Shown here: one piece after another, positions 6,790-61,739 of the stretch
Position numbering within the stretch: position 1 is the first letter of the stretch
Layout: each line of letters opens with the position of its first letter
Assembly: GCA_951406725.2 (NCBI GenBank)
Contig: OX597816.1
Location: forward strand, 59,396,001 to 59,460,000
Origin: Octopus vulgaris
Lineage: Eukaryota
Direction of reading: 5' to 3'
Length of the DNA stretch: 64,000 nucleotides
Program-made: the position numbers and the translations under genes
The notes under the pieces: generated by a model
Database searches by the model: none
Told to the model about the DNA's origin: nothing
What the model saw: the letters and a program-made list of their open reading frames with translations, nothing else

Positions 6790-8034
6790 CAAGGGGCGTT
6801 CAATAAGTAATGCCCCTGACCCACTTCCCATAGCAGTAGAGCAACGAAACTTGGCACAGTTATTAGTCTTTTTCTACATAGGAACCACCCAGAGTTACGC
6901 ATTATTCCCATCGTTTGATGTAGCTCTGGAGACCGTTTTTGTAGAAGACTCCAGCTTGGTTCTCCAACCACGACATGACTTCAGAAATCAAGGCTGCATC
7001 ATCTGGGAAACGCTTTCCTTTCAAAATCAACTTCATGGCTGGGAAGAGGTGAAAATCAGAGGGTGCAAGGTCAGGAGAGTAGGGGGGATGGGAGAGGAGT
7101 TCATAGCTGCACGCCTGTGCTTCTGATCTGGCGACACGCGAGTTGTGGACGGGAGCGTTGTCCTGCAGGAGGAGGATGCCTTTGCTGATCTTGCTCCGCC
7201 TCTTGATTTTGATAGCTTCTCTTAATTTCCTCAAAAGTGAAGCATAATAAGCTTCTGTAATTGTGGCACCCTTGGGCATGACCTTGCCAGCGGAGGGCTG
7301 CACCCTTGCCTTCTTTGGAGGAGGTGAGTCATGGTGCTTCCACTGCATTGACTGGGCTTTGGTCTCTGGATCATAGAGATGGACCCAGGTTTCATCCTGT
7401 GTAATTAGTCTTTTGAAAAATCTTGACTCATCTTCTTGGCACATCTCCAAATTCATCCTTGAGCACTCGACACGTTCTTGCTTCTGGAAAGGTGTGAGCA
7501 ACCTGGGAATCCATCTGGCAGACACCTCTTGCATATGCAAATGGTCATGAATGATAGTTTCCACAGACCCGGTACTAATCTTGACCTCATGGGCTATTTG
7601 GCGAATAGTTGTGCGTCGATCTTCCAAAATGGCAGCCTCAACTCGACAGACAGATGCCTCATCAATGGCAGAAGGGGGACGACCAGATCTGGGAGCTGTT
7701 TCAACAGAGTTCTGACCATGTTTGAATTCACGATGCCAGCGTTTTACAAGGTCATATGATGGGGCATCATTACCATAAGTTACTTTCATTTCATCAAAAG
7801 TCTCCCGTGGTGTGTGTCCTTTCAAATACAAAAACCGGATCACTGCTCGACACTCAACAGGCTCCATTTCACACTTGACTCAGTTCAAACACCTGTAAAT
7901 CAGACACCACAATTGGTTCAGAGCTGTAATTAGCCACTTAATCTATAGAGATATAAATAATTGCACATGCAAAATTTCAGCTAGATCAAACAACTTCAAG
8001 TGGGTCAGGGGCATTACTTATTGAACGTCCCTCG
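6790..8034 (-). mobile_element. Mariner (DD34D) transposon within the DNAL4 intron
   Basis: 37-bp TIRs caaggggcgttcaataagtaatgcccctgacccactt / aagtgggtcaggggcattacttattgaacgtccctcg, with TA on both sides. Confidence 0.95.
6902..7867 (-). pseudogene. Mariner transposase, nearly intact
   Basis: HTH, WIPRLL, TQDETW, QDNAPVH and YSPDLAPSD motifs. In-frame deletion after GKVM (the usual xxVFWD..G segment is missing) and a premature stop before CVTLGGSYVEKD. Confidence 0.92.
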
Positions 8035-10560: not shown

Positions 10561-10897
10561 CTATGTTCTATATTTAAGAGATGAGGAATTATTTACATTT
10601 GACAGATATTTGTCCTCATCTTGTTCGTTGTTAATACAACGTTTCAGCTGATGTATCCTCCAGCCTTCATCAGGTGTCTTGGGGAAATTTCGAACCTGGG
10701 TTCTCATTCCTAAGGTAAATGTAGAGAATAGTAATAATAATAATAATAATAATAACAACAACATTGTAAAATACTTTAGGAATGAGAACCCAGGTTCGAA
10801 ATTTCCCCAAGACACCTGATGAAGGCTGGAGGGTATATCAACTGAAATATTAACAACAAACAAGGTAAGGATAAATATCTGTCAAATGTAAATAATT
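10561..10897 (-). mobile_element. PLE pseudo-LTR with inverted copy (10587-10717 / 10772-10897) around a (TAA)n spacer
   Basis: Inverted repeat of about 125 bp. Minus strand 10634-10677 reads ACAC-CUGAUGAA-GGCUG...CAGCU-GAAAC-GUU-GUAU, a hammerhead-like motif. Confidence 0.7.
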
Positions 10898-15375: not shown

Positions 15376-15698
15376 TCGTGTTTGTCCTTACCGGTGTTGG
15401 TGTGTTTACATCACAGTAATCTAGCGGTCAGACAAGAGAGATTGCTAAAATAAGTACAGACTTTAATATATATATATATATATACATACACATATATATA
15501 TATATTGCCATGATAGATCGGTAGCCACTACCCACATATTTTTCTCTCCTTGTTTCTTTGTGTGTTCTTTCTGTGGAAGAGCGTAGTCTCGAAACAAGAA
15601 AAGGCTTTTTCAATTCCCGAGCGTTATACTAATACATCTGTTTGTTTTCTACACCACCTGTCTTCGTCTTTTGTTTTTTTTTCTTCGCGAATTCTCCC

Positions 15699-25624: not shown

Positions 25625-26509
25625 TGCTGCAAATGCTGACGGGATGGATAGGTATAACAATTATTTCCACACCTTCCGGCAGTATTGCTGTCTCCACGCT
25701 GCTTACCATCATCGATGTTATCAATGTAAGGTCGGGAGATTTAGACTCCTCATCGTCAGTCGCTTTCTCCACATCCTGTTATTCATGCAGCCACAAGCAC
25801 CAAACGAGGGGCAGTTGCACAGCTACCCACCATCCCATGTAACAACTATTTTTTGTTGTTGGTGCTCTCTGAAGATATGTTCTTCAGGTTTTGGAAGGCG
25901 GCGAGCTGGTAGAATCGTTTGCACGCCGGCCTAAATGCTTAACGGTATTTCGTCTGTCGCTACGTTCTGAGTTCAAATTCCGCCGAGGTCGACTTTGCTT
26001 TTCATCCTTTCGGGGTCGATTAAATAAGTACCAGTTACGCACTGGGGTCGATATAATCGACTTAATCCATTTGTCTGTCCTTGTTTGTCCTCTCTGTGTT
26101 TAGCCCCTTGTGGGTAGTAAAAAAATAGGTTTTGGTTTGGTCGCTTTTAGTCCTTCCCTAATACACCTCAATCATAGCTTTGCTATATCCAAGAACTCTT
26201 TCTGCAATTTACCAATTACGATTCTGCTTTCATTCCTAAGTCCACTTTTGGCGTGTGATCTGACAACATGTAAATCTTCCCCAGAAGAATCTACTTAGTA
26301 ACTTTATCAAGCTTTGTGTATCAACGCTGGTGCACTTAAACAGCTGAATACCGCATATAGTCATTGAACGATGACGGGAATAACATAAGAGAGACCTGTC
26401 TCTCGTGTCAGCTCTGCGGCTGAAGAGGAGATAACCACTTTGAAATGTATGCATCCCGCATTTTGGTTATGTGTCGCTGTGAGCTGACTCGGTGTATTTA
26501 CTTCACTAC

Positions 26510-26804
26510 AGATTTCACTTCTTTGCCCCATGAAAGAAAGTTTGAGAGGCAAACATTATTCCAGTGACGAGGAAGTGAAAACTGTAGTGAAGAAGTGGCT
26601 CAAAGAACAGTCAACAGAATTTTACAGGTCAGGGCTACATGCTCTCATTCGAAGGTTGCTATTGAGAGAAACGGTGACTATGTTGAGGAGTGGGGATCTG
26701 ATCCACAGAGGACCAGCTTCATTTTGATGCATGATACATGTTCCTGTGTTGGTAATTACACCTCTCCTAAACAAAATGGCATTACTTTTTGACTCACCCT
26801 TGTA
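26510..26804 (+). mobile_element. Mariner 3' fragment
   Basis: MKESLRGKHYSSDEEVKTVVKKWLKEQSTEFYRSG and ERNGDYVE, then a TIR-like ttactttttgactcacccttg-TA. Confidence 0.8.
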
Positions 26805-27340
26805 TTCTATATTTAATCCTGTAGCGTCACTGGATCTGATTTTGTTTCAATAAACCACGATACACATTGTGTCTTTTCTTGAACAATAGCCATTGTTAAG
26901 GGTTTCACTTAACAGACCCTTTCCCATCAACACGTTACCTAAAACAACACAAATGCAAGATAGTTAAAAAATTTTGATTAGCACTGAGTACATAGAGCCA
27001 GTCTGATAACAAACCATATTCCCATCAATTATCTTTGTAATAAACTTTTGAAATCGTATAAGAAAATTTATAGACACCCTGTATATATACATACATTTAT
27101 CGGCCATACAACGGCACATGTGCTTTTCTCCGGACTTTCTGCTTCTTCCTCCTGTTTCTCCTCCCTGGACTTTTCTTCTTTCTGTCGAAGAGCCATGCTC
27201 GAAACGTCATTTCATCTCCTATTTTCCCGTCTAGAACTTTAACTGAGCGTCTATCAAATATATATTCTCTGTGTGTACGTCTAATTGACTTTCGTTTTTT
27301 CCCCGGTAATTTTTTTATAGTTTATTTCTCTTTCTTTCTT

Positions 27341-27390
<50 letters not shown>

Positions 27391-27475
27391 TTCGAGACAA
27401 AACCACTATTTTGCAAAACAAACAAGGAAAGACTTAATCAATACATAAAAATTTTTAATATAAAGAAATAAACCG

Positions 27476-27518
27476 CCACTACAATCGTTTCATGTCTTCA
27501 ATGACATTCGTCAGGTAG
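27476..27518 (-). ncRNA. Minimal type I hammerhead ribozyme
   Basis: CUAC-CUGACGA-AUGUC-AUUGAA-GACAU-GAAAC-GAUU-GUA-GUGG. Confidence 0.8.
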
Positions 27519-30417
27519 ATTTTCGATCTAAAATATCAATATATTAAAATATAAGTTTAAAATAATAAAATTATCAATGAAAAATATAAATATATATAAT
27601 CTATATATACTCTATATATAATCTATATATAATCAATATATAATCTAAAATAAACCCTATAAACAATTGAATATAAAGAAACCTATTATTAAAGTTCTCA
27701 TATTTAAAGATGTACAAAAAACAAAAAAACAAAAAACAAAAAACAAAAAACAAAAAAACAAAAACAAAAAAACAAAAAAACAAAAAACAAACAACATATA
27801 TATTATTATGGATGATTGGGCGTATTTAGAGGTGTATATATTGTGTTTTGTATGTATGTGTGAATGTTTACAATCCCCTTGTATTTTATTTGGTATGTTG
27901 AATATGGCAGTTTTATTTGGGTATTGTTTGTTGCAATATACGTTTATATAGATATTTAGGAGATGGTCCGTGAATAGGTAGGTATGGGTGTGTATGCATG
28001 TGTGCGTGTGTACAAGTGCAAGTGTAGATGCGGGAGTGTATGAGTGCTATGTAATTGAGTGGGATTGTTTATGCACTTGTATACATGCATGTTTTGAATG
28101 TGCGTGTGATTGCACCCGTCTGCGTGTACACACTCATATATACATATATTAATATTTATTTACTTTTTTGAAAGAGTGTATTTTATAAATATGTGTATGG
28201 GATGATATGTGTGAATGTATATATTTATATATATTTTATATATATATATATTTATGTTTGTATATGTATTTATTTAATCATTTATTGAGAGTCGGATTGA
28301 ATATATTGGTGTATATATCGAGTTTTGTACGTATGTATATGTATGTGTGAGTGTGTATATGGTTATGTTTGTGGGTGTGTGTATATATGTGTGTGTATTT
28401 GTGTGTATTGTGGATTTGGTAAGGGGTTTTATCTTTATATTTGTATGTATGGATTTCATTTATCATGATTATTTTATTAAGAATTTTTTAGTATTTTAGT
28501 CCCCATGCATTATAGCTTGGTATGTTGTTCTTGGTAGTTTTTTTATTGGGTATTGTTTTGTAGCCATTTATACGTATATTTAGATGTCTAGGAGAGTGTC
28601 CGTGAATATGCATATTATGGGTGTGTGTGCATGTGTGCGCGTGTATAAGTGCATGTGTAGATGTGGGAGTGCATGATTGCTATGTAAAAGTGTGTGCTTG
28701 TGTATGCACTTGTATACATGTATGATTGATGTGCGTGAGATTGCACCCATTTTTTTAGGGATATTTATATTTATTTATTTGTAAGGGTGTGGGAGTGAAT
28801 ATTTTGATGTATATATCGAGGTTTGTACGTATGTATATGTATGTGTGAGAGGAGTGGGTATATGTATATGTAGTGGGTGTGTGTTTTACGTGTGTGTATT
28901 TGTGTGTAAATGTATAGATAGGGGGATTGCTATATAGGTATGTTATAGTGTTTAATAAAGGGAGATTTTATCGTTATATGTATATATGAGTTTTCGTTTA
29001 TCATGGTAGTTTTATTAAAGAATTTGTAGTAGTTTCTGTCTGTTTAAGTGTTTAACATATTATTCCATTTATTCCATTCATAATTTTAAATAACGTTCGT
29101 TCTCCACGCGCAAAGAATTTTATAATTCCATTCTGTTCCATTCATAATTTTAAATGACGTTCGTTCACCGAGCTAAGAATTTTTATACATATGTTCGGTT
29201 TCTATGGTAACGTAATTTTGTTTAAAGTTATAACGGCTAGAGTTTGAATTCACTTCATAAATTAAAACAGATTAGGAGGTATGTATTTTTTTCTCCTTAT
29301 GTTAATCTTGTTACTTATGATAATCTGGTTACTTATGGAGTATTTTATATATCGTATTATGTGTAGATATGTTGTTTTTCTTTTGAGTGTTTATGTATGT
29401 GTGAATGTGTGTGTGTGTGTGCGTATTTGGTTGTGTAATTTATTTATCTATATGGGTGTGGGTGTGAATATATTGTTGTATATATCGAGTTTAGTACGTA
29501 TGTATATGTATATGTGAGGGGGTATATGTATATGTTATGGGTGTGTGTTTTACGTATGTGTATTTTTGTGTGTGAATGTATTGGGGATTGCTATATAGGT
29601 ATTATTGTGTATGGTAAAGGGTGTTTTATCATTATATGTATATATGGGTTTCATTATCATGATTGGTTTATTAATGATTTTGGAGTAAATTCTGTATATT
29701 TACGTTGATTAAATATTATTCCATTCTTTCCATTCATAATTTAAAAAAAAACGTTCGATCACCACGTGCAAAGAATTGTTTATTTTTACTTTGAGTGTTT
29801 ATGTATGTGTGAATGTGTGTGTGTGTGTGATTGTTTGCGTAATTTATTTATCTGTATGGGTGTGGGTGTGAATATATTGGTGTATATATCGAGTTCTGTA
29901 TGTATGTATATGTCTGTGTGAGCGGGTATTTGTATATTGTTTATGACTGTGGGTTGTATGAGTGTGTGAGGGAGTATGAATAAGTAATGTGTTGAAGTAT
30001 TTGGCTATTTTACTAATTTATTAATTTATCGTTGCCTAGACGTTTTTATGTGTATGTATAGAGATATATATATTGGTGTGTGAGTTAGTGTATGTATTTA
30101 GATATGGTTATATATACTTAGTTATATGTGTATGAGCATGTGTGTATATATAGTTTATTTTTATTTTGTTTTTGTTTTTTGTTTTTTGTTTTTTTTGTTT
30201 TTTGTTTTTGTTTTTTGTTTTTTTGTTTTTTGTACATCTTTAAATATGAGAACTTTAATAATAGGTTTCTTTATATTCAATTGTTTATAGGGTTTATTTT
30301 AGATTATATATTGATTATATATAGATTATATATAGATTATATATATTTATATTTTTCATTGATAATTTTATTATTTTAAACTTATATTTTAATATATTGA
30401 TATTTTAGATGGAAAAT

Positions 30418-30460
30418 CCACCTGACGAATGTCATTGAAGACATGAAACGATTGTAGTGG
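30418..30460 (+). ncRNA. Minimal type I hammerhead ribozyme
   Basis: CCAC-CUGACGA-AUGUC-AUUGAA-GACAU-GAAAC-GAUU-GUA-GUGG. Complete core, 4-bp stem I, 5-bp stem II, and GUA cleavage triplet (cut predicted after 30456). Confidence 0.85.
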
Positions 30461-30669
30461 CGGTTTATTTCTTTATATTAAAAATTTTTTATGTATTGAT
30501 TAAGTCTTTCCTTGTTTGTTTTGCAAAATAGTGGTTTTGTCTCGAATTAATATTATATAATATTTTACTATAAAATTGGATTAATCCTAAATCTGATTTT
30601 TTCCCTGTAAATTTGGATTTATTCCCTAATATTTATTATTATTATATATATATATATATATATATATAG

Positions 30670-30880
30670 TTAATTCAAACGAATAAAAAAGAAAAAAACG
30701 AACGTGAGGATGTGCACAAAAAAACGTATTGGCTTGACGCTCACTGAAAGGAAAGAGTTTGACGTTTCCAGCACAGATCTTCGTCGGAAAGGAGAAAGGC
30801 AAAAGTCCAAACAAGGAAAAGAAATCGCCAACGGCACACGTGTAGTTACGTTGCTGAAGTGATCGGAAGTGACCGGAAGT
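30670..30880 (-). mobile_element. Short PLE-like tail repeat with variant hammerhead motif (30758-30790)
   Basis: UUU-CCGACGAA-GAUC-UGU-GCUG-GAAAC-GUC-AAA. Homologous to 1395-1592. Confidence 0.55.
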
Positions 30881-30984
30881 GTACACACACACACACACAA
30901 ATAAGAAGAAATTGATATAAAGGTTGACGGACATACAATAACGGCTGGTAGTCATGCGTAACACTTGAAACTGCTCGCCAGATT

Positions 30985-31300
30985 CCCTATTGTAAAAGGC
31001 CCTGAAGCTACCCTTTAGGACATTGCAAAAATAAACTCGAACAGACTTTCGGCAAGATCGGCATCAACCAAAAAACTTGGAAGGGAGAAATAGAAGATCT
31101 CGCAAACTCTGGCATCAAACCTTTTCGACTTCTTTAGAACTCTTTCAACAAGAATGCAGAAATTAGAGGACAAACAACAAAGACAAAATCTCAGCCAAGC
31201 CCAAGTATGTCCACTTCCAGATAACTTAGACTATTGGGTACAACTTATAAGGGTGCATGTTCTCAGTTATCAGAATTAGTAACACTATAAACAAGACAGG
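30985..31300 (+). mobile_element. Decayed RTE-like LINE ORF C-terminus
   Basis: Frameshifted translation fragments FGKIGINQKTWKGEIED, LWHQT and LEDKQQR resemble the RTE C-terminal GI....WE..A.DR..WR...LE.KR.RR pattern. Confidence 0.45.
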
Positions 31301-33011
31301 AAAAGAAGAAACGAAACGCTGGTAAACGAATAGAAATATCCAGTAACAAGTTTGCAGACGACAGGGAATAATACGTTTTAGGTTTTGTCCCAGCAAAACC
31401 TTGGTGGAAATATCATTTTACTAAACACAAATGTTAAAAACATAGGACATAGCACCGTTGTACAGATCTGGAACCAGATACTGCCCTACAAACTCGATAC
31501 ATCGGGTAAAATAATATTAAAGAAATTTAGCCATAATACAATTGCATGGTCACAGGACCAACGCAAACACAATTCTCCGTAACAATAATAACAACAACAA
31601 TAACAAAAATAATAATGTACTATCTTGTGTATTGTCGTTGGGCCACGTATATAAATATAACCCTAAAATACAAAAAAATATAAAGTAGACAAACATACTG
31701 TAATTGTATGGAACATGAAAAATAATGACCGTCACAAAAAGGCACAATGGTTATTAGGAAAATATAATCAGGAGTTTGTATAAACTGAGATGACAAAAGT
31801 ATTGTTATAGTAACATCTGTGATGTGTAGTTTCTTGATTAAACATAAACCCTCATTGCAATGGCTCTTGTCTATTAATAACTCTCAACCAATAAACTAAA
31901 CTATTGTGTTTCTCTGTATAACCTCAGGGTAAAATTACAGTTCGACGTTGATCAGAAATGTAGGGACATAGAACAATGACATAAACTGGGAACAATGTGC
32001 AGTTATAAAAAGAGGAGACAGGGTACAGATCTAGGAAAAAGGGACAAGGTACAACTGTATACTAGAAAATAATCCCTTCTACTTACTATACGCCCAAAGC
32101 CTTAAATTTAGGCGTGTTTGTGCCGATTCACTGAAAATAATATGGGGGTTATTACATCGAAATTTCAGGCCCTTAAATACGAAGAGTACAGGCGCAGGAG
32201 AAAAAAAAACCCATTTAACACTAGAGAATAAGATAATTTCTGGTGCAACTTCCACCAGACACATTACCAGTGACCTTTGACTGTAGCCATCTCATAGAAT
32301 TGATCCTACAAATGTTTGTCACGAAAGAAGCAGTAAATATGTTGAACCCCAGGCAAACCCTGACTTAAATAGATTAGATTGTAGCGCAGACTCTGGTGAA
32401 ATTCCTCTCTCCCTTTATCATATATACATGCATTCGAACGTAGCAGGGAACAGCTAGCCTTTGGTTGCTATTTTGATCCCGTTGTGTCTGCTACTTTGAT
32501 TGGTTGGTATTGGCGCAATTTGTCTCTTACTCTGTCGCGCCAACTTGCCGTGTATAACCAGTCGGAGGCCCTAAATAGGATCATGTGGGACAACCTATTC
32601 ACCACCCTGTTTGAACAGACAGTTCCTTATAAAAACTCAGCTTTTCTTCGCTCCAGAGTTTTTATACAAGAAATTAAAAGGTTACAGAGAATGGCCACTT
32701 GCAGTTTAACTTCTGTTAAGATACATAAATAATTGGGAACATCTCAAAGTTCTACAGCTCGAACGACACGGAGCAAGATGTTATACAGGGATAATCCTGG
32801 GAGGTCATTTTTGCAAATTTTAGCATAAAAAATACAAAACATCAGTGCAAGAACTAATAGAGAGTTCTAGTTTCCATATATACCGTATTGTCAGTTTGAG
32901 AAGAAGGGTCAATTTATTGTACATCCTTTGTTCACGATGGAAAACACGGGACATACAATATGTTCAGCGGTTCTCAAGAGTTCAACTGCATAGCGAAAGA
33001 AAACAGAAATA

Positions 33012-34292
33012 TTAGGTCGTCAAATATGAAATTTGTAGAAAAGAAAAAAAAAATTTGCTAATGTTTTATAAATACAAGGAATAATTTTATTCATCAAAGT
33101 ATGCACCTATATCTTTTGCCATTTCAGCGGTAGTTTGTCCAGCCCGGAACTGTAAAATCCTGGCAATCTAGAGTCAATAAAATCTTGGAAAGCCTGTTTT
33201 ACAGCATCGTCGGAGTTAAATTTTTTTCCTATAAAAAAACTACCCAAATTCTGGAAGAAGTGGTAGTCAGTAGGGGCAAGATAGGGTGAGTATGGTGGAT
33301 GATGGAGAACTTCCAACTCCAACTCATGTAGTTTCGCCAATGTCATTTTTGCGATGTGTTGTCTGACGCTGTCTTGCAATAAAATAGGAATGGATCTGTT
33401 GACTAATCTAGGCTGTTTTTCTTTTGTAAATCTCTGCATCATTTGGTCCAGCTGGCTGCAGTATATTTCGGCCGTGATTGATGAGCCAGGTTTAATGAAA
33501 TCATAATGGATCATACCTGCGCCAGACCACCAAACACACACCATCAGCTTCTTTTGATGAATTTTGCTTTGTGGACTGTGTTTTGGTGGCTGGTCTTTGT
33601 CCAACCATTGTGCTGACGTTTACGGTTGTTGTATTGGATTAATTTCTCATCACATGTTACAATTCGATTAAAAAATGATTCATTTTTGTGACGAGAAAGT
33701 AGCATAATGCAGGCTTCCAAACGTTGCTGTTTCTGATTTTCATTGAGATCATGTGGAACCCACTTATCCAACTTTATCACTTTACCGATTTGAACTAGGT
33801 GGGTCAATATTGTTTGCTTGCTAACACCAAACAACAATGATAATTCACAGGTAGTTTGAGATGCATCTGACTCGACGGTGGCTTTCAGTTCGTCATTATT
33901 CACCTTTGATTCTGGTCGACTGCGTTGCTCATTTCTGTGGTCAAAGTTACCAGAACGAAATTTTGCAAACCAATTTGATACTATCTGCTGTGTAATAAAA
34001 TTAGAATGAAATACCCCTTAATATTCTGAACTGTCTTTGATGTTGTATTTCCAAGAAAGAACTCATATGTCAAAACTGTACTAATTTCCGACTTATCCAT
34101 CTCTAAACAAAAATAGCCAAAAACGATTTATATATATATTTTATAAAGCACAAAATCAGTTAGAATAAAGAAATAGATGTGTCATCACTCTAACAAAAAA
34201 TAAAGATTGTCAAAATATAATAATGGCGCAAAATGAGCAGCTATCAAAGTTTACCACAGGCCTTACTACAAATTTCATACTCGACGACCTAA
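33012..34292 (-). mobile_element. Full-length mariner (DD34D) with frameshifted transposase
   Basis: 27-bp TIRs ttaggtcgtcaaatatgaaatttgtag / ctacaaatttcatactcgacgacctaa (2 mismatches), TA-flanked. ATG at 34100. Motifs WVPHDL, TCDEK, LQDS and YSPYLAPTDYH in ORFs 33544-33903 and 33107-33604. Confidence 0.95.
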
Positions 34293-37302: not shown

Positions 37303-37616
<314 letters not shown>

Positions 37617-37709
37617 AACGGTAAGATAACAAAAGAAAGAAAGAGACCTCAATATTATGTAAATAGAGGAAATTTATCTATACAATATGTTACATTACTC
37701 GGTAGTCAA

Positions 37710-37770
37710 GATAAAACTCTGAGTTTCAGATGCCGAAGTGGAAATCCACAACACCATCTCTTCGGTTATC
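37710..37770 (-). ncRNA. Variant type I hammerhead motif in the 3' pLTR (inverted twin at 38447-38506, +)
   Basis: GAUAA-CCGAAGA-GAUG...CAUC-U-GAAAC-UCAGA-GUU-UUAUC. U4 is C and there is an extra U before GAAA. Same strand as the endonuclease ORF. Confidence 0.65.
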
Positions 37771-37988
37771 TGGCTATTTGAAAACGTTATGAAAAAATAC
37801 CGTTAAAAATGAAGGAAATTACTCTGTTATAACTCTGCTTTGCCTGCGTACTTATACATCGCTCGCATTTTTCGTCATAAAAATTATATAAAAATACATA
37901 AAAAATATATAAAAATATATAAAAATATATAAAATCATATAAAATCTTCTTGGGACATAACACAGAAAGCATGTTCTATCCGTTTTCT

Positions 37989-38408
37989 TTAGGGGACCAA
38001 AAACGTAACAAATTTAGTCACATGTGGGCATGATCCGAAAAGTTCTGTCCTTGTATTTAGACATGTGGTAGGGTCTAAGCTGCTTTTCCAGATAAGCCAT
38101 CTCTCCATGTCGCATAAACCGCACCTTCCGCTGCCGTTAGTATAGGGCTTACATCTGGCCAAAATCTTCCATTGTATGTTATAATCGACACCTTTATCTC
38201 TTAAAGACCAAATATGATTGGATAATTGTGTCGCTTTTCTTTTGTTCCAGTGCCTAAAGCTCAAAGTGTGGTTATTGAACCTGGCCTTGAAATTACCCTC
38301 TGTCAGGCCCACGTATTTCTTCGTCAAAACGGTGTCTTTAGTGGTTATAGAGTTTACGGTAGCCTCATATATGATGGTCTTGGACATGCAAGCTCCATTT
38401 CCCTTCAT
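37989..38408 (-). pseudogene. PLE GIY-YIG endonuclease domain (C-terminal fragment of the RT-EN ORF)
   Basis: IIY...YVGLT...FKARFNNH...LSNHIW...W.IL...CGLCDME...LNTRTE...CPH, with no internal stops. Confidence 0.88.
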
Positions 38409-38536
38409 TTTTAACGGTATTTTTTCATAACGTTTTCAAATAGCCAGATAACCGAAGAGATGGTGTTGTGGATTTCACTTCGGCATCTGAAACTCAGAGT
38501 TTTATCTTGACTACCGAGTAATGTAACATATTGTAT

Positions 38537-38581
<45 letters not shown>

Positions 38582-43232: not shown

Positions 43233-43318
43233 GATGATGTTGGTGGAGGCGGTGATGATGAGTGAAAAGCATTTTTTAAAATTGAACTAAGTTTTTTATA
43301 TCACCTATCACTTATCGC

Positions 43319-43597
43319 ATGCACATCGCCAGCTTGCCATTCACTTTAGAAAGAAACCAGTTTCCCGTTTGCCTGTCATATGCAATGACTACCAATAAAT
43401 CACAAGGGCAGACATTTGATAAAGTGGGACTGTTCTTGCCTGAACCTGTATTAGGCCATGGTCAGCTATGTGTTGCATTCTCAAGGGCTCGCAAATTATC
43501 TGACGTGAGAGTTAAAGTCATCAACACTGACAAACAGGGGAAAAGAAGAGGGAGAACTTAGACGAAGACCATAGTCTGCAAAGAAGTATTGAATTGA
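43319..43597 (+). pseudogene. PIF1-family helicase C-terminus, probably a Helitron RepHel remnant
   Basis: LPFTLERNQFPVCLSYAMTTNKSQGQTFDKVGLFLPEPVLGHGQLCVAFSR (helicase motifs V and VI), then a stop and TKTIVCKEVL. Confidence 0.88.
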
Positions 43598-47785: not shown

Positions 47786-48783
47786 CAGGATATCCATAAA
47801 GTCTCTTTACAATTTCAAATATTTATTACCAAAGCAAATAAATAGATAAATCGGTGGAAATTATCGCAAAATGAAGAGTAGATATTAATGATTTTTTTGC
47901 CTCATTTAATACATCTCTACATGGGCACTATTAATTGCATGAAGCACATCAAGACAGTAATCGATTGCTTGCCATATTTGCTGTAGCGTGGAGTTTCCAA
48001 TGGTGGCAATAGCATCAGGGATCCTTTGCTTTAAGTCGTCGATGTCCCGTATCTTTGTTCGATACACGATGTCTTTAACATAATCCCGTAGAAAAAAGCC
48101 CCGGGGAGTGATATCCGGGGAACGAGGTGGCCAGGAAATTGGATCATCCCTTCCAATCCACCGGTCTGGAAATGTTTGACTTAGGAAGCCACGAACATGC
48201 AGTCCGCAATGTGGTGGTGCACCATAATGCTGGAAAATGATGGTTGGTTGATGGTCATGCAGTTGTGGTGCCACATATTCAGTCAAATGGTCAAGTTAAT
48301 CATTTGAAGTAATTGATCTCGCTGTGAAGGAAAATGGACCACTGATTCGATTGTACATCATTCCACACCAAACATTCATCTTTGGACTATTTCGGTGAAG
48401 TTCCCTATTGACATGGGGGTGTTCTGATCCCCAGATCCTCACATTATGTATGTTCAGTTTCCTTGAAACATAAAAGATTGTCTCCTCACTAAAACAAACT
48501 CGGATGAGGAACGCTGCATCCTCAGAAATTCGTTCCAACATTTTAGCTGCAAACTCGTTTCGTCTTCGTTTCTCATTTGGTTTGAGCGACAGTAAGAGTT
48601 GCACTTTGTAAGCGTACACTCGCACGTTCTTGTGTAGGACTTTGTGCACTGTGGAACATGGTAGCTGTAACTGTCTAACAACAGTACGTATGGACTTTGT
48701 AGGAGAACCAGTAAAGGCTTGTCTTACACGATCGATGTTTTCCTCATATTTTTTTTAATTGTTGAGACTTTATGGGCACTCTG
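47786..48783 (-). mobile_element. Decayed Tc1/mariner of the DD41D (rosa-type) group
   Basis: TA-flanked TIRs caggatatccataaagtctc / gagactttatgggcactctg. Motifs CFSEE, N.HNVRIWG, QHYGAPPH and WPPRSPDITPRGFF, with 41 residues between the (mutated) second and third acidic positions. Confidence 0.88.
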
Positions 48784-59734: not shown

Positions 59735-60435
59735 TATATTTAAATGATAAATGCCTGGAAAGTTTTACATATTTTTACAGTTCCAGTAATGGATTGGATC
59801 TGTAGTATTCGAATTAGCTTTTCCCTTTCTGATTTTGAGAAACCCAATTTCTCAGTATTGATATTTAAGCAATGTGTTACATATCCCAGGGCCCCAATAA
59901 TTACAATTATAAACCTGAACTTGTAATCTGGATAGAGTAACTGCAGTTTTCTCAATAGTTCAGCATAGGTGTTCTCTTTTTCACTGATCTTCAGCTTTAT
60001 ATTAACATCCGCTGAGTAGCTAATTTCCACAACTGTTGTGCTTACATTTTATTGAGGTTTTCACTGGGACATTCCATCAGTACTCCTATTTATTATGAGT
60101 GGCTATGGCTTCTACCATACTGTGGGTTCTTATTTCTGTGTTCTCGGAGTTATCACTCCGACGAATTTCATTATATAGTGTCCTAGCTACAACATCATGT
60201 CTCATCGGTAGATAATACCATGATGACATTTTCGGACAACTGCTTATGATGTGGGTGATATCTTCGGTGTTAACTCCACAAAGTCAGCATTGGCTGTCAC
60301 ATTTTACTGCTTTTCCTGCATCTCTATCCCTTTTGTGCATCAGGTATTTGGTTGATCTTTCCTGTTCCTGGATTGCAAATGCATACCCTTCAAAGTGGTT
60401 GGGGGTAGTAATCCATGATAAACCGCTTTGATGAT
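59735..60435 (-). mobile_element. R4/Dong-like non-LTR retrotransposon 3' fragment (CCHC knuckle and RLE)
   Basis: EGYAFAIQEQ..STK, C*LCG...EDITHIISSC...RHDVVA, VEISYSAD...EKENTY.EL and IVIIGALG. Confidence 0.85.
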
Positions 60436-60439
60436 CGAT

Positions 60440-61590
60440 GTTACAAGTGGCTTTCCTCCTTTCCACAAAAAGCGGAAAAGGATTCTCTCCAGCTTGTTCA
60501 GTCACAAATCGGGGCAAGGAACCACGGTCACGCGGTAGGTGATAACCGACGCTATAAACATCTCCACCACCACCACTTGGGTCTGGGTTAGAGCAGTCAC
60601 CTTGCCGGCTACCTCACTCCAATTTATCTCTATCTGGAGGCCTGGCCCAAACCAGACTCCAAGCAGCTTAACAGGACCTTCCGTCCAACGCCCCACGACG
60701 TTATTGGACGGCATCGGCATCGGCTTGCCTCTCCAGGTGCCAAGTTGCAAACCGACCGACTTGTCATTGTTAACCTTTGATCCTGCCACCACCTCGTAAC
60801 TTTTGATAGCCTCTTCCACCACTGGAAGCTGGCTCTCATCCGCCACAATGATGGAGATGTCATCCGCATACGCTGTAGCTCCTCTTCCACACCATAGATC
60901 ATGCGGTGCGCTCCCTAGTGCCTCCAACTTCCACTGTAATGGCTCGAGAGCCAAAACATACAAAAGCGGAGACAGGGGTCACCTCGGACGCACTGAGCGC
61001 TTGATTCTGAATGGCTTCGAAAGGAAACCATTCACTTTTATGACAGACTCGATGTCGCTGTACAACGCAGCAACCCAACCGCGTAAGGTCGGGCCCAGGC
61101 CAGCCTTCTCGAGGACCGCCGCCGAGTACCGATGGTCGACCCTATCAAATGCCTTAGACTGGTCTAAATGTACCAGCCCCCCCTGCGCCAGAAAGCTTCC
61201 CACCCTCTCCAAGGAGTAGCGTATAAGGTGGAGATTGTCGTGGATCGTCCTGCCCGGGATAGCGCGGTTTGCGCTTCCCCTACAAGTCTGTCCACGACCC
61301 GCGCCAACCTTTTCGCTAGCACCTTGGCCAAAATCTTTAGCTCTGTATTCAGCAGAGTTATGGACCTGAAATTCCTTTGCTCAGGTCATTCCTGATCAAC
61401 GTCACCACTCCACGGCTCGCAGACTTGGGAATTCTCCCATTCTGCTGCCAATTGGCGTAGACTCTGGCCAGCAGGTGCCCGAACAAGTCTGGCATACTTT
61501 TGTAAAATTCATAAGGCAGACCATTGAGACCTGGCGACTTCTCCCCGAGGCATTCGCCCAGTACCTCGATCACTTCCTCTGCTTTCATTT
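60440..61590 (-). mobile_element. L1/Tx1-clade LINE reverse transcriptase fragment (frameshifted)
   Basis: KSPGLNGLPYEFY, FRSITLLNTELKILAK, PGRTIHDN, LDQSKAFDRVDH, LYVLALEPL, AYADD and VKLLGVWF. Confidence 0.92.
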
Positions 61591-61739
61591 TTTTCAAAAA
61601 GCTCGGAGAGCTTTTCCTTTGGTAGTTAGACGTTTTCAGTAGCCACCGCAGTAACTGCTGAAAATTTCTTAACTGGCTCTTCCAGTGAATTTTTCTCTGA
61701 AATTATTTCGACCAACATATTCGTTCGAAATAAATTTAT

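Follow-up and report, generated by a model that had tools for sequence, protein, structure and literature searches.

A Young Insertion with Inverted Hammerhead-Bearing Arms in a (TA)n Microsatellite, Putatively a 5'-Truncated Penelope-Like Element

Element Structure and Age

The whole stretch of DNA analyzed here is 64 kb long and is herein referred to as the window. It contains a 3.25-kb element bounded by two inverted arms, at 27388-27800 and 30145-30549, of which the left one is the reverse complement of the right one (94.0% identity over 417 columns by self-BLAST). From the arm alignment, the right arm (+ strand) was annotated as a 3' pLTR in direct sense orientation and the left arm (- strand) as an inverted pLTR copy without a tail. 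Apart from a (CAAAAAA)n array, the differences between the arms are 2 substitutions (27517/30419 and 27525/30411), a 1-nt indel in an A-run, and one 11-nt repeat-unit indel; all remaining mismatches are confined to the array or its inner end. The original prediction described ~400-bp inverted termini differing at a few positions, which is confirmed by the alignment and is a fair wording for the non-array part, where divergence is 2 substitutions in 315 nt, or 0.6%.

The left arm directly adjoins (TA)21 (27345-27387, 21.5 copies by TRF), whereas the right arm is followed by a tail of ~93 nt (30550 to ~30642, + strand) and then by (TA)13 (30643-30668, 13 copies by TRF). The tail has no match in the interior above shuffled sequences and is found on the right arm only; both this one-sidedness and the (TA)n on the two flanks had been recognized correctly. 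These runs form the left and right parts of the (TA)n target, and with regard to a target-site duplication, both element ends were found inside (TA)n. The tail includes a 21-nt tandem duplication (30588-30627) and a 10-nt palindrome. Inverted arms, a tail-less left arm, and TA flanks agree with the tested criteria for insertions of EN+ Penelope-like elements (PLEs).

Long inverted ends in TA, together with mariner remnants nearby, could also suggest a non-autonomous DNA transposon with long TIRs and a TA target or, given the unequal inverted repeats known in DIRS elements (PMC8969392), a DIRS-like element. Such an origin is very improbable: the arms carry a hammerhead motif, and the inverted repeats do not lie at both very ends, the right arm being followed by the ~93-nt tail. 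Classification as a TIR transposon or MITE was rejected on account of this tail. An internal complementary region of the DIRS type was searched for and rejected as well, all six comparisons falling within the range of 60 shuffles.

The age of the insertion was estimated from the 2 differences per 315 nt with a published octopus calibration (JC 0.09 = 25 My; PMC13282606). The host is presumed to be a cephalopod from the resemblance of SINE-like repeats in the window. Assuming an octopus host and a common template for both arms, the insertion would be about 0.9 My old, with a Poisson range of 0.1-3.2 My; the element had been proposed to be young, and the 2 substitutions agree with that. The only two non-array substitutions lie at a distance of 8 nt from each other on the 5' strand of helix I of the hammerhead motif (30406-30421 and 27515-27530). 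At this site each arm contains a perfect short local hairpin, with a register differing between the arms. These registers may reflect quasi-palindrome correction, the outcome of which they resemble, or they may be due to chance.

Assemblers are known to have difficulties with inverted PLE structures (PMC8557442), and one arm could in principle have been mirrored by an assembly artefact. Substitutions and repeat-unit indels distinguish the two arms, and the same layout recurs elsewhere in the window (see A Coding PLE Stump in the Same Window), which makes this explanation very improbable.

Hammerhead Motifs and Their Predicted Behavior

Each arm contains one type I hammerhead motif. The motif of the right arm (30418-30460, + strand) has a predicted cleavage site after GUA at 30456, and that of the inverted arm (27469-27530 with a core span of 27476-27518, - strand) after 27480; both are found where the original prediction had located them. 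The motif consists of a 4-bp helix I, a CUGACGA core, one extra base, a 5-bp helix II with GAAA, a 2-bp helix III, and GUA. In the inverted arm, helix I includes one G-U pair and can be extended by 7 bp past a 5-nt bulge. Helix III and its loop form a self-complementary sequence, with a predicted self-duplex of -5.8 kcal/mol.

A strict type I scan resulted in 3 matches in the window, namely the two arms and position 26420, vs. a total of 6 matches over 30 shuffles of the window (0.2 per shuffle); the two arm motifs count as one independent occurrence, as one arm is a copy of the other. A relaxed core scan yielded 7 cores vs. 0.5 per shuffled window. No matches, the arm motifs included, were found by an Rfam search at gathering thresholds, and the predicted folds of the motifs were no more stable than those of shuffled sequences (z from -0.5 to -1.0). 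Further isolated hammerhead-like cores were found on the + strand at 15571, 19374, and 26420. The first of them precedes a T-rich stretch and then (TA)n; the other two may be chance occurrences. Downstream (TA)n was associated with 3 of the 7 cores vs. a background of 0.18, numbers too small to be conclusive, with two of the three cores being those of the arms.

The two hammerheads are likely a single pLTR motif copied twice and not a pair excising an RNA unit. Each strand has one motif, located near the 3' end of that strand, and the two ribozymes being on opposite strands, no strand carries a cleavage site at both of its ends. Whichever strand is read through, transcription reaches the antisense arm before the ribozyme. 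The monomer hammerhead fold was predicted at -5.6 to -6.8 kcal/mol in three of four variants and at -3.3 kcal/mol for the left arm without the distal helix, and alternative folds reached -10.8 and -11.8 kcal/mol. The duplex of the ribozyme with its own antisense copy was predicted at -74 kcal/mol over 43 nt, and pairing of the outer 188 nt of the arms at -273 kcal/mol. Because the antisense arm is made first and this duplex far exceeds the monomer fold of about -6 to -7 kcal/mol, the ribozyme on each strand is predicted to be sequestered by its antisense copy.

Published PLE ribozymes are weak (PMC4209133; PMC11167929). A single minimal hammerhead showed no cleavage while dimers cleaved at a low level, and the self-complementary helix III was connected to the dimer function of minimal motifs (PMC4209133). 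The ribozyme of the anole PAc element needs protein and is dispensable for insertion in vitro (PMC11167929). Activity of the arm motif is thus predicted only for a dimer, at a weak level, or with the help of a protein, and the proposed processing by self-cleavage becomes doubtful in view of both the modeled antisense pairing and the literature.

The original prediction also included a candidate retrozyme, a class that can give circular RNA; in this reading, the element would self-cleave at both ends and circularize. The element resembles retrozymes in being non-coding and in having type I hammerheads with a self-complementary helix III, and animal retrozymes were reported as PLE pLTR derivatives (bioRxiv 10.64898/2026.07.22.740005). 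Nevertheless, retrozymes are by definition tandem arrays on one strand, with unit lengths of 51-972 bp and a ribozyme in every unit. In the element, 2.9 kb lie between the two ribozymes, which are on opposite strands and are each preceded by their own antisense copy, so that no strand has two cleavage sites. We consider this part of the prediction highly unlikely. As to particular classes, an LTR retrozyme (direct LTRs and type III hammerheads) was rejected by the inverted repeats and the type I motif. A non-LTR retrozyme was rejected by the single motif per strand, where at least two consecutive same-strand hammerhead units are required, and by the 2.9 kb between the motifs, where monomers are ~150-450 bp (51-972 bp in vertebrates). 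The claim that a read-through transcript could form ~400 bp of dsRNA is retained as a modeled potential that would apply to any inverted-pLTR insertion.

The Non-coding Interior

The interior (27801-30144, + strand, 2.34 kb) has 29-56 stops in each frame, and its longest open stretch is 89 aa. No Pfam family was matched at E<=0.1 in any of the six frames read through stops, in agreement with the earlier statement that RT or EN coding is lacking. The tblastn search proposed for PLE ORF remnants, in which 150 proteins related to a PLE endonuclease and a profile derived from them were used, likewise gave nothing significant in the interior (best E 0.069), though the same relatives and profile match the endonuclease-bearing stump at 37612-38544 at E 1e-41 and 1e-58. 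These negatives have low sensitivity: the profile represents the Hydra-type clade only, and the RT of a full PLE-like protein (P0094) likewise escaped detection by Pfam. In total, none of the six frames of the element contains an ORF for RT plus GIY-YIG, a result of low sensitivity outside the Hydra clade. No candidate emerged when one interior frame was used as a protein query. An interior 'CGCEYIG' was considered as a possible GIY-YIG and rejected, having no Pfam or profile match (best tblastn E 0.069) and being repeated in several modules that differ by frame-breaking indels.

The interior is built of decayed internal duplications, a feature absent from the original prediction. By self-BLAST, four duplicated modules were found on the + strand (about 27874-28493, 28500-29127, 29372-29785, and 29780-29967) with 70-85% identity and many 1-2-nt indels, which makes the interior unlike a single decayed ORF. 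The modules contain no hammerhead. A more complex motif of ~65 nt is present three times in the GT-rich modules (29058-29186 and 29714-29783) with 82-86% identity. The modules diverge by 15-30% and the arms by only 0.6%; therefore, the duplications predate the insertion and were present in its template.

The interior is strongly enriched in G and T on the + strand. Its GC skew is +0.54, vs. a largest absolute value of 0.35 among 560 overlapping 2.3-kb windows elsewhere in the stretch, and the right arm with the tail has a skew of the same sign (+0.27). This strong skew with a shared sign, like the T/G-rich, partly duplicated 3' region of Naiad_Obim (see Comparison with Known Elements), favors an interior derived from a long non-coding 3' part of the parent PLE. 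Arguing against it are the lack of any ORF remnant tying the interior to a PLE, the much shorter non-coding stretch before the ribozyme of the stump at 37612-38544 (~225 nt), the missing canonical hammerheads of Naiads, and a tail two to three times as long as those published. On balance, we lean towards the interior being the 3' region of the family itself.

Alternatively, the interior could be captured host DNA: a solo pLTR would have been located downstream of an old, GT-rich, minisatellite-like segment, and the read-through RNA would have been copied by PLE enzymes. Capture of spacers and non-coding sequences between pLTRs is described for Pen1_Av (PMC3846280), and the interior is old and, like host DNA in the window, rich in (GT)n-like sequence. 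On the other hand, its skew exceeds all others in the window and has the sign of the pLTR, and its modules have no match elsewhere in the 64 kb; this origin is accordingly regarded as unlikely.

Probable Neighboring Insertions in the Same Microsatellite

Both flanks, as was also missed originally, are ends of other repeats with hammerhead cores. The left flank (27170-27344, + strand) has a variant core at 27182, and the right one (30669-30800, - strand) a degenerate core at 30787 (-). Each repeat ends in the shared (TA)n, and both cores point into the (TA)n run that holds the element. The flanks are similar to each other only over 38 nt (81%) and have nothing in common with the arms. Based on this, three separate insertions likely took place in one microsatellite: the two flanking repeats and the 3.25-kb element.

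A Coding PLE Stump in the Same Window

A Hydra-type PLE stump, used as a control and herein referred to as control C, was found 7 kb from the element (37612-38544, - strand). It belongs to a family unlike that of the arms and has 147-bp inverted arms (98% identity), a tail of ~60 nt on one side, and (TA)n flanks. Its hammerhead cores, at 37765 (-) and 38452 (+), contain CCGA in place of CUGA, and its helix III layout is that of most Hydra-clade rows in the PMC8557442 supplement. Between the arms lies a GIY-YIG remnant in an open frame of 148 aa (37989-38435, - strand; Pfam E 0.006, below the cut-off; best phmmer E 2.9e-38). Thus, the layout of the element also encloses an ordinary coding PLE stump in the same window. 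An exhaustive search provided 5050 relatives of this endonuclease at E<=0.001; a search for longer relatives provided 26 candidates, none at E<=1e-10. One 723-aa protein with RT-like motifs, recognized by eye, was found among 150 matches. In control C, ~225 nt separate the stop codon from the ribozyme, vs. ~2.6 kb of non-coding DNA upstream of the right-arm ribozyme.

An older head-to-head inverted pair (10587-10897, 80% identity) has cores at 10673 (-) and 10816 (+) and a short (AAT)n spacer; it is likely another PLE stump. Other mobile-element remnants in the window include Mariner/Tc1-type transposases at 33110-34017 (-), 6905-7879 (-), and 47909-48754 (-). Positions 33110-33619 match Pfam Transposase_1 (E 4.5e-25), and 6905-7879 (-) is an open frame of 325 aa named a transposase by eye. 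Broken RT-like frames of non-LTR retrotransposons were recognized by eye at 59743-61702 (-) and 30940-31250 (+), with no Pfam match for those at 30.9-31.4 kb. A 91-aa frame at 43286-43558 (+) resembles, by eye, the C-terminus of a PIF1-type (Helitron) helicase.

Comparison with Known Elements

The layout of an inverted tail-less arm, a direct tailed arm, and (TA)n flanks is described in PMC8557442, PMC3846280, and PMC8969392, and insertions with an inverted pLTR copy and a one-sided tail in particular in PMC8557442. The element shares these features with EN+ PLE insertions, as well as a size of ~3 kb and opposite-strand hammerheads ~100-190 nt from each end. A close parallel is Penelope-13_HM of Repbase, which is 3045 bp long and has (TA)n, an inverted 5' copy, one hammerhead at position 102, and another, on the other strand, at 2944 (PMC8557442 supplement). 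Opposite-strand pairs of minimal hammerheads, with 100-700 bp between them, are also reported in PMC4209133, where most dispersed minimal motifs are interpreted as truncated PLEs. In contrast to EN+ PLE insertions, no RT or GIY-YIG was detected between the arms, ~2.6 kb upstream of the ribozyme is non-coding, and the tail is ~93 nt long vs. the published 30-40 bp (PMC8557442; PMC3846280).

The motif itself resembles metazoan PLE minimal hammerheads by its short helix I, the extra base after the CUGANGA core, and a tiny self-complementary helix III suited to a dimer (PMC4209133). It differs from them by a helix I extendable past a 5-nt bulge, from Schistosoma hammerheads by a helix II of 5 bp instead of 7-8 bp (PMC4209133), and from the Hydra-type 4-bp/1-nt helix III of most rows in the PMC8557442 supplement by a helix III of 2 bp. 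Three arm motifs were not found in that supplement, where a match could be masked by line breaks.

In Adineta vaga Pen1, the 3' pLTR is likewise immediately preceded by long non-coding DNA, and its spacers of 0.9-1.5 kb of captured host DNA would look similar (PMC3846280); those spacers are unique to each copy, and the element described here is present once in the 64-kb window. Non-LTR retrozymes are likewise non-coding and PLE-related with a type I hammerhead (PMC7229834; bioRxiv 10.64898/2026.07.22.740005), but they form head-to-tail same-strand repeats of a few hundred bases, unlike the opposite-strand motifs 2.9 kb apart found here. The (TA)n target is shared with the octopus Naiad and Hydra PLE consensus sequences (Naiad_Obim, Naiad_Ovul, and Hydra-1_Obim). 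Additionally, Naiad_Obim, its consensus being read by eye, has a non-coding T/G-rich 3' end of ~1 kb with a decayed duplication. Naiads, in contrast to the element, have no canonical hammerheads, and the ribozyme of Hydra-1_Obim is different.

No published description of the element family was found, although Repbase, Dfam, or an O. vulgaris repeat library may contain it; Penelope is listed among the abundant coleoid repeats (PMC8967140). Exact-pattern scans of metagenome contigs, prokaryote genomes, and viral contigs provided nothing, as expected for an animal repeat. A search of sequencing runs returned 24 runs, 20 of them with part of 26500-31500, a stretch that includes other repeats. Among the runs with sequence from this stretch, representing 11 studies and four organism codes, 6 contain at least half of the words, and no RNA run was listed among them; these shares were given no weight as evidence.

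Proposed Origin of the Element

The connection to PLEs made in the original prediction is well founded on the pLTR, its inverted 5' copy, the tail, and the (TA)n target. Taking all readings of the interior together, the insertion was very probably made by PLE enzymes, which would have been supplied in trans, as proposed, or from a parent copy. Of the five tested PLE features, four are present and the fifth, the ORF, is missing, as it would be from a truncated copy; the element was for this reason assigned to PLE-derived insertions rather than to autonomous PLEs. The absence of the ORF is expected if the copy was cut short before the ORF was reached. The reading that we favor, though by no means strongly, is a single recent insertion of a 5'-truncated PLE into a (TA)n microsatellite, with the left end probably mirrored during insertion.

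By analogy with known PLE biology, the (TA)n run would have been nicked by the GIY-YIG endonuclease of the parent element. Of two start sites, reverse transcription would then have used the outer one, located downstream of the ribozyme, and produced the tail and the pLTR. The cDNA would have extended for ~2.3 kb through the non-coding 3' region and halted before the ORF. A second cDNA, started at the inner site, would have added the tail-less inverted pLTR at the 5' junction. Two RT start sites account for the one-sided tail of the anole PAc element (PMC11167929), and a similar pair of sites is presumed here.

A parent with a long non-coding region is compatible with published data on O. vulgaris, where 329 recent near-full-length Penelope insertions cover 1,795,539 bp, ~5.5 kb each (PMC13282606). 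The octopus consensus sequences used for comparison are 2.5-4.0 kb long, shorter than this mean. The ~5.5-kb mean thus leaves room for long non-coding parts, and tandem or inverted parts may also explain it.

Alternatively, the element could represent a non-autonomous PLE family, in which a pLTR with a fixed non-coding body is repeatedly moved in trans by PLE proteins. The lack of coding across 3.25 kb and the young arms would suit such a family, pLTRs suffice in cis for mobilization in Adineta (PMC3846280), and putatively non-autonomous PLEs are described in Chlamys (PMC8557442). The same layout, however, results from plain 5' truncation, as in control C and Penelope-13_HM; a direct upstream pLTR, which would supply a promoter, is absent; and self-BLAST found no second copy of the interior in the 64-kb window, where the element itself is present once. 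We therefore regard this family as possible but rather unlikely. A more elaborate version, to which we give marginally less credence, is a cephalopod non-autonomous PLE family with a 2.3-kb modular RNA body on a hammerhead pLTR, the hairpins of which would silence the ribozyme and feed ADAR or small-RNA pathways.

Biological Significance

PLEs constitute 6.83% of the Octopus vulgaris assembly, with 190 families (PMC13282606 supplement). Against this background, a single PLE stump matters little, and its layout is a textbook one. Its practical use is as a young copy, ~0.1-3 My old if the octopus clock applies, with a clean pLTR, ribozyme, and tail for a search for the parent family. If the interior is a fixed non-autonomous body or captured host DNA, the element would be a modest new case of trans-mobilization by PLEs. 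A non-autonomous family, if it exists, would correspond, among PLEs, to SINEs and MITEs and would differ from tandem retrozymes. Cephalopods are an animal group with heavy A-to-I editing, and under either reading of the interior, if true, the element would be a source of long dsRNA in such a group.
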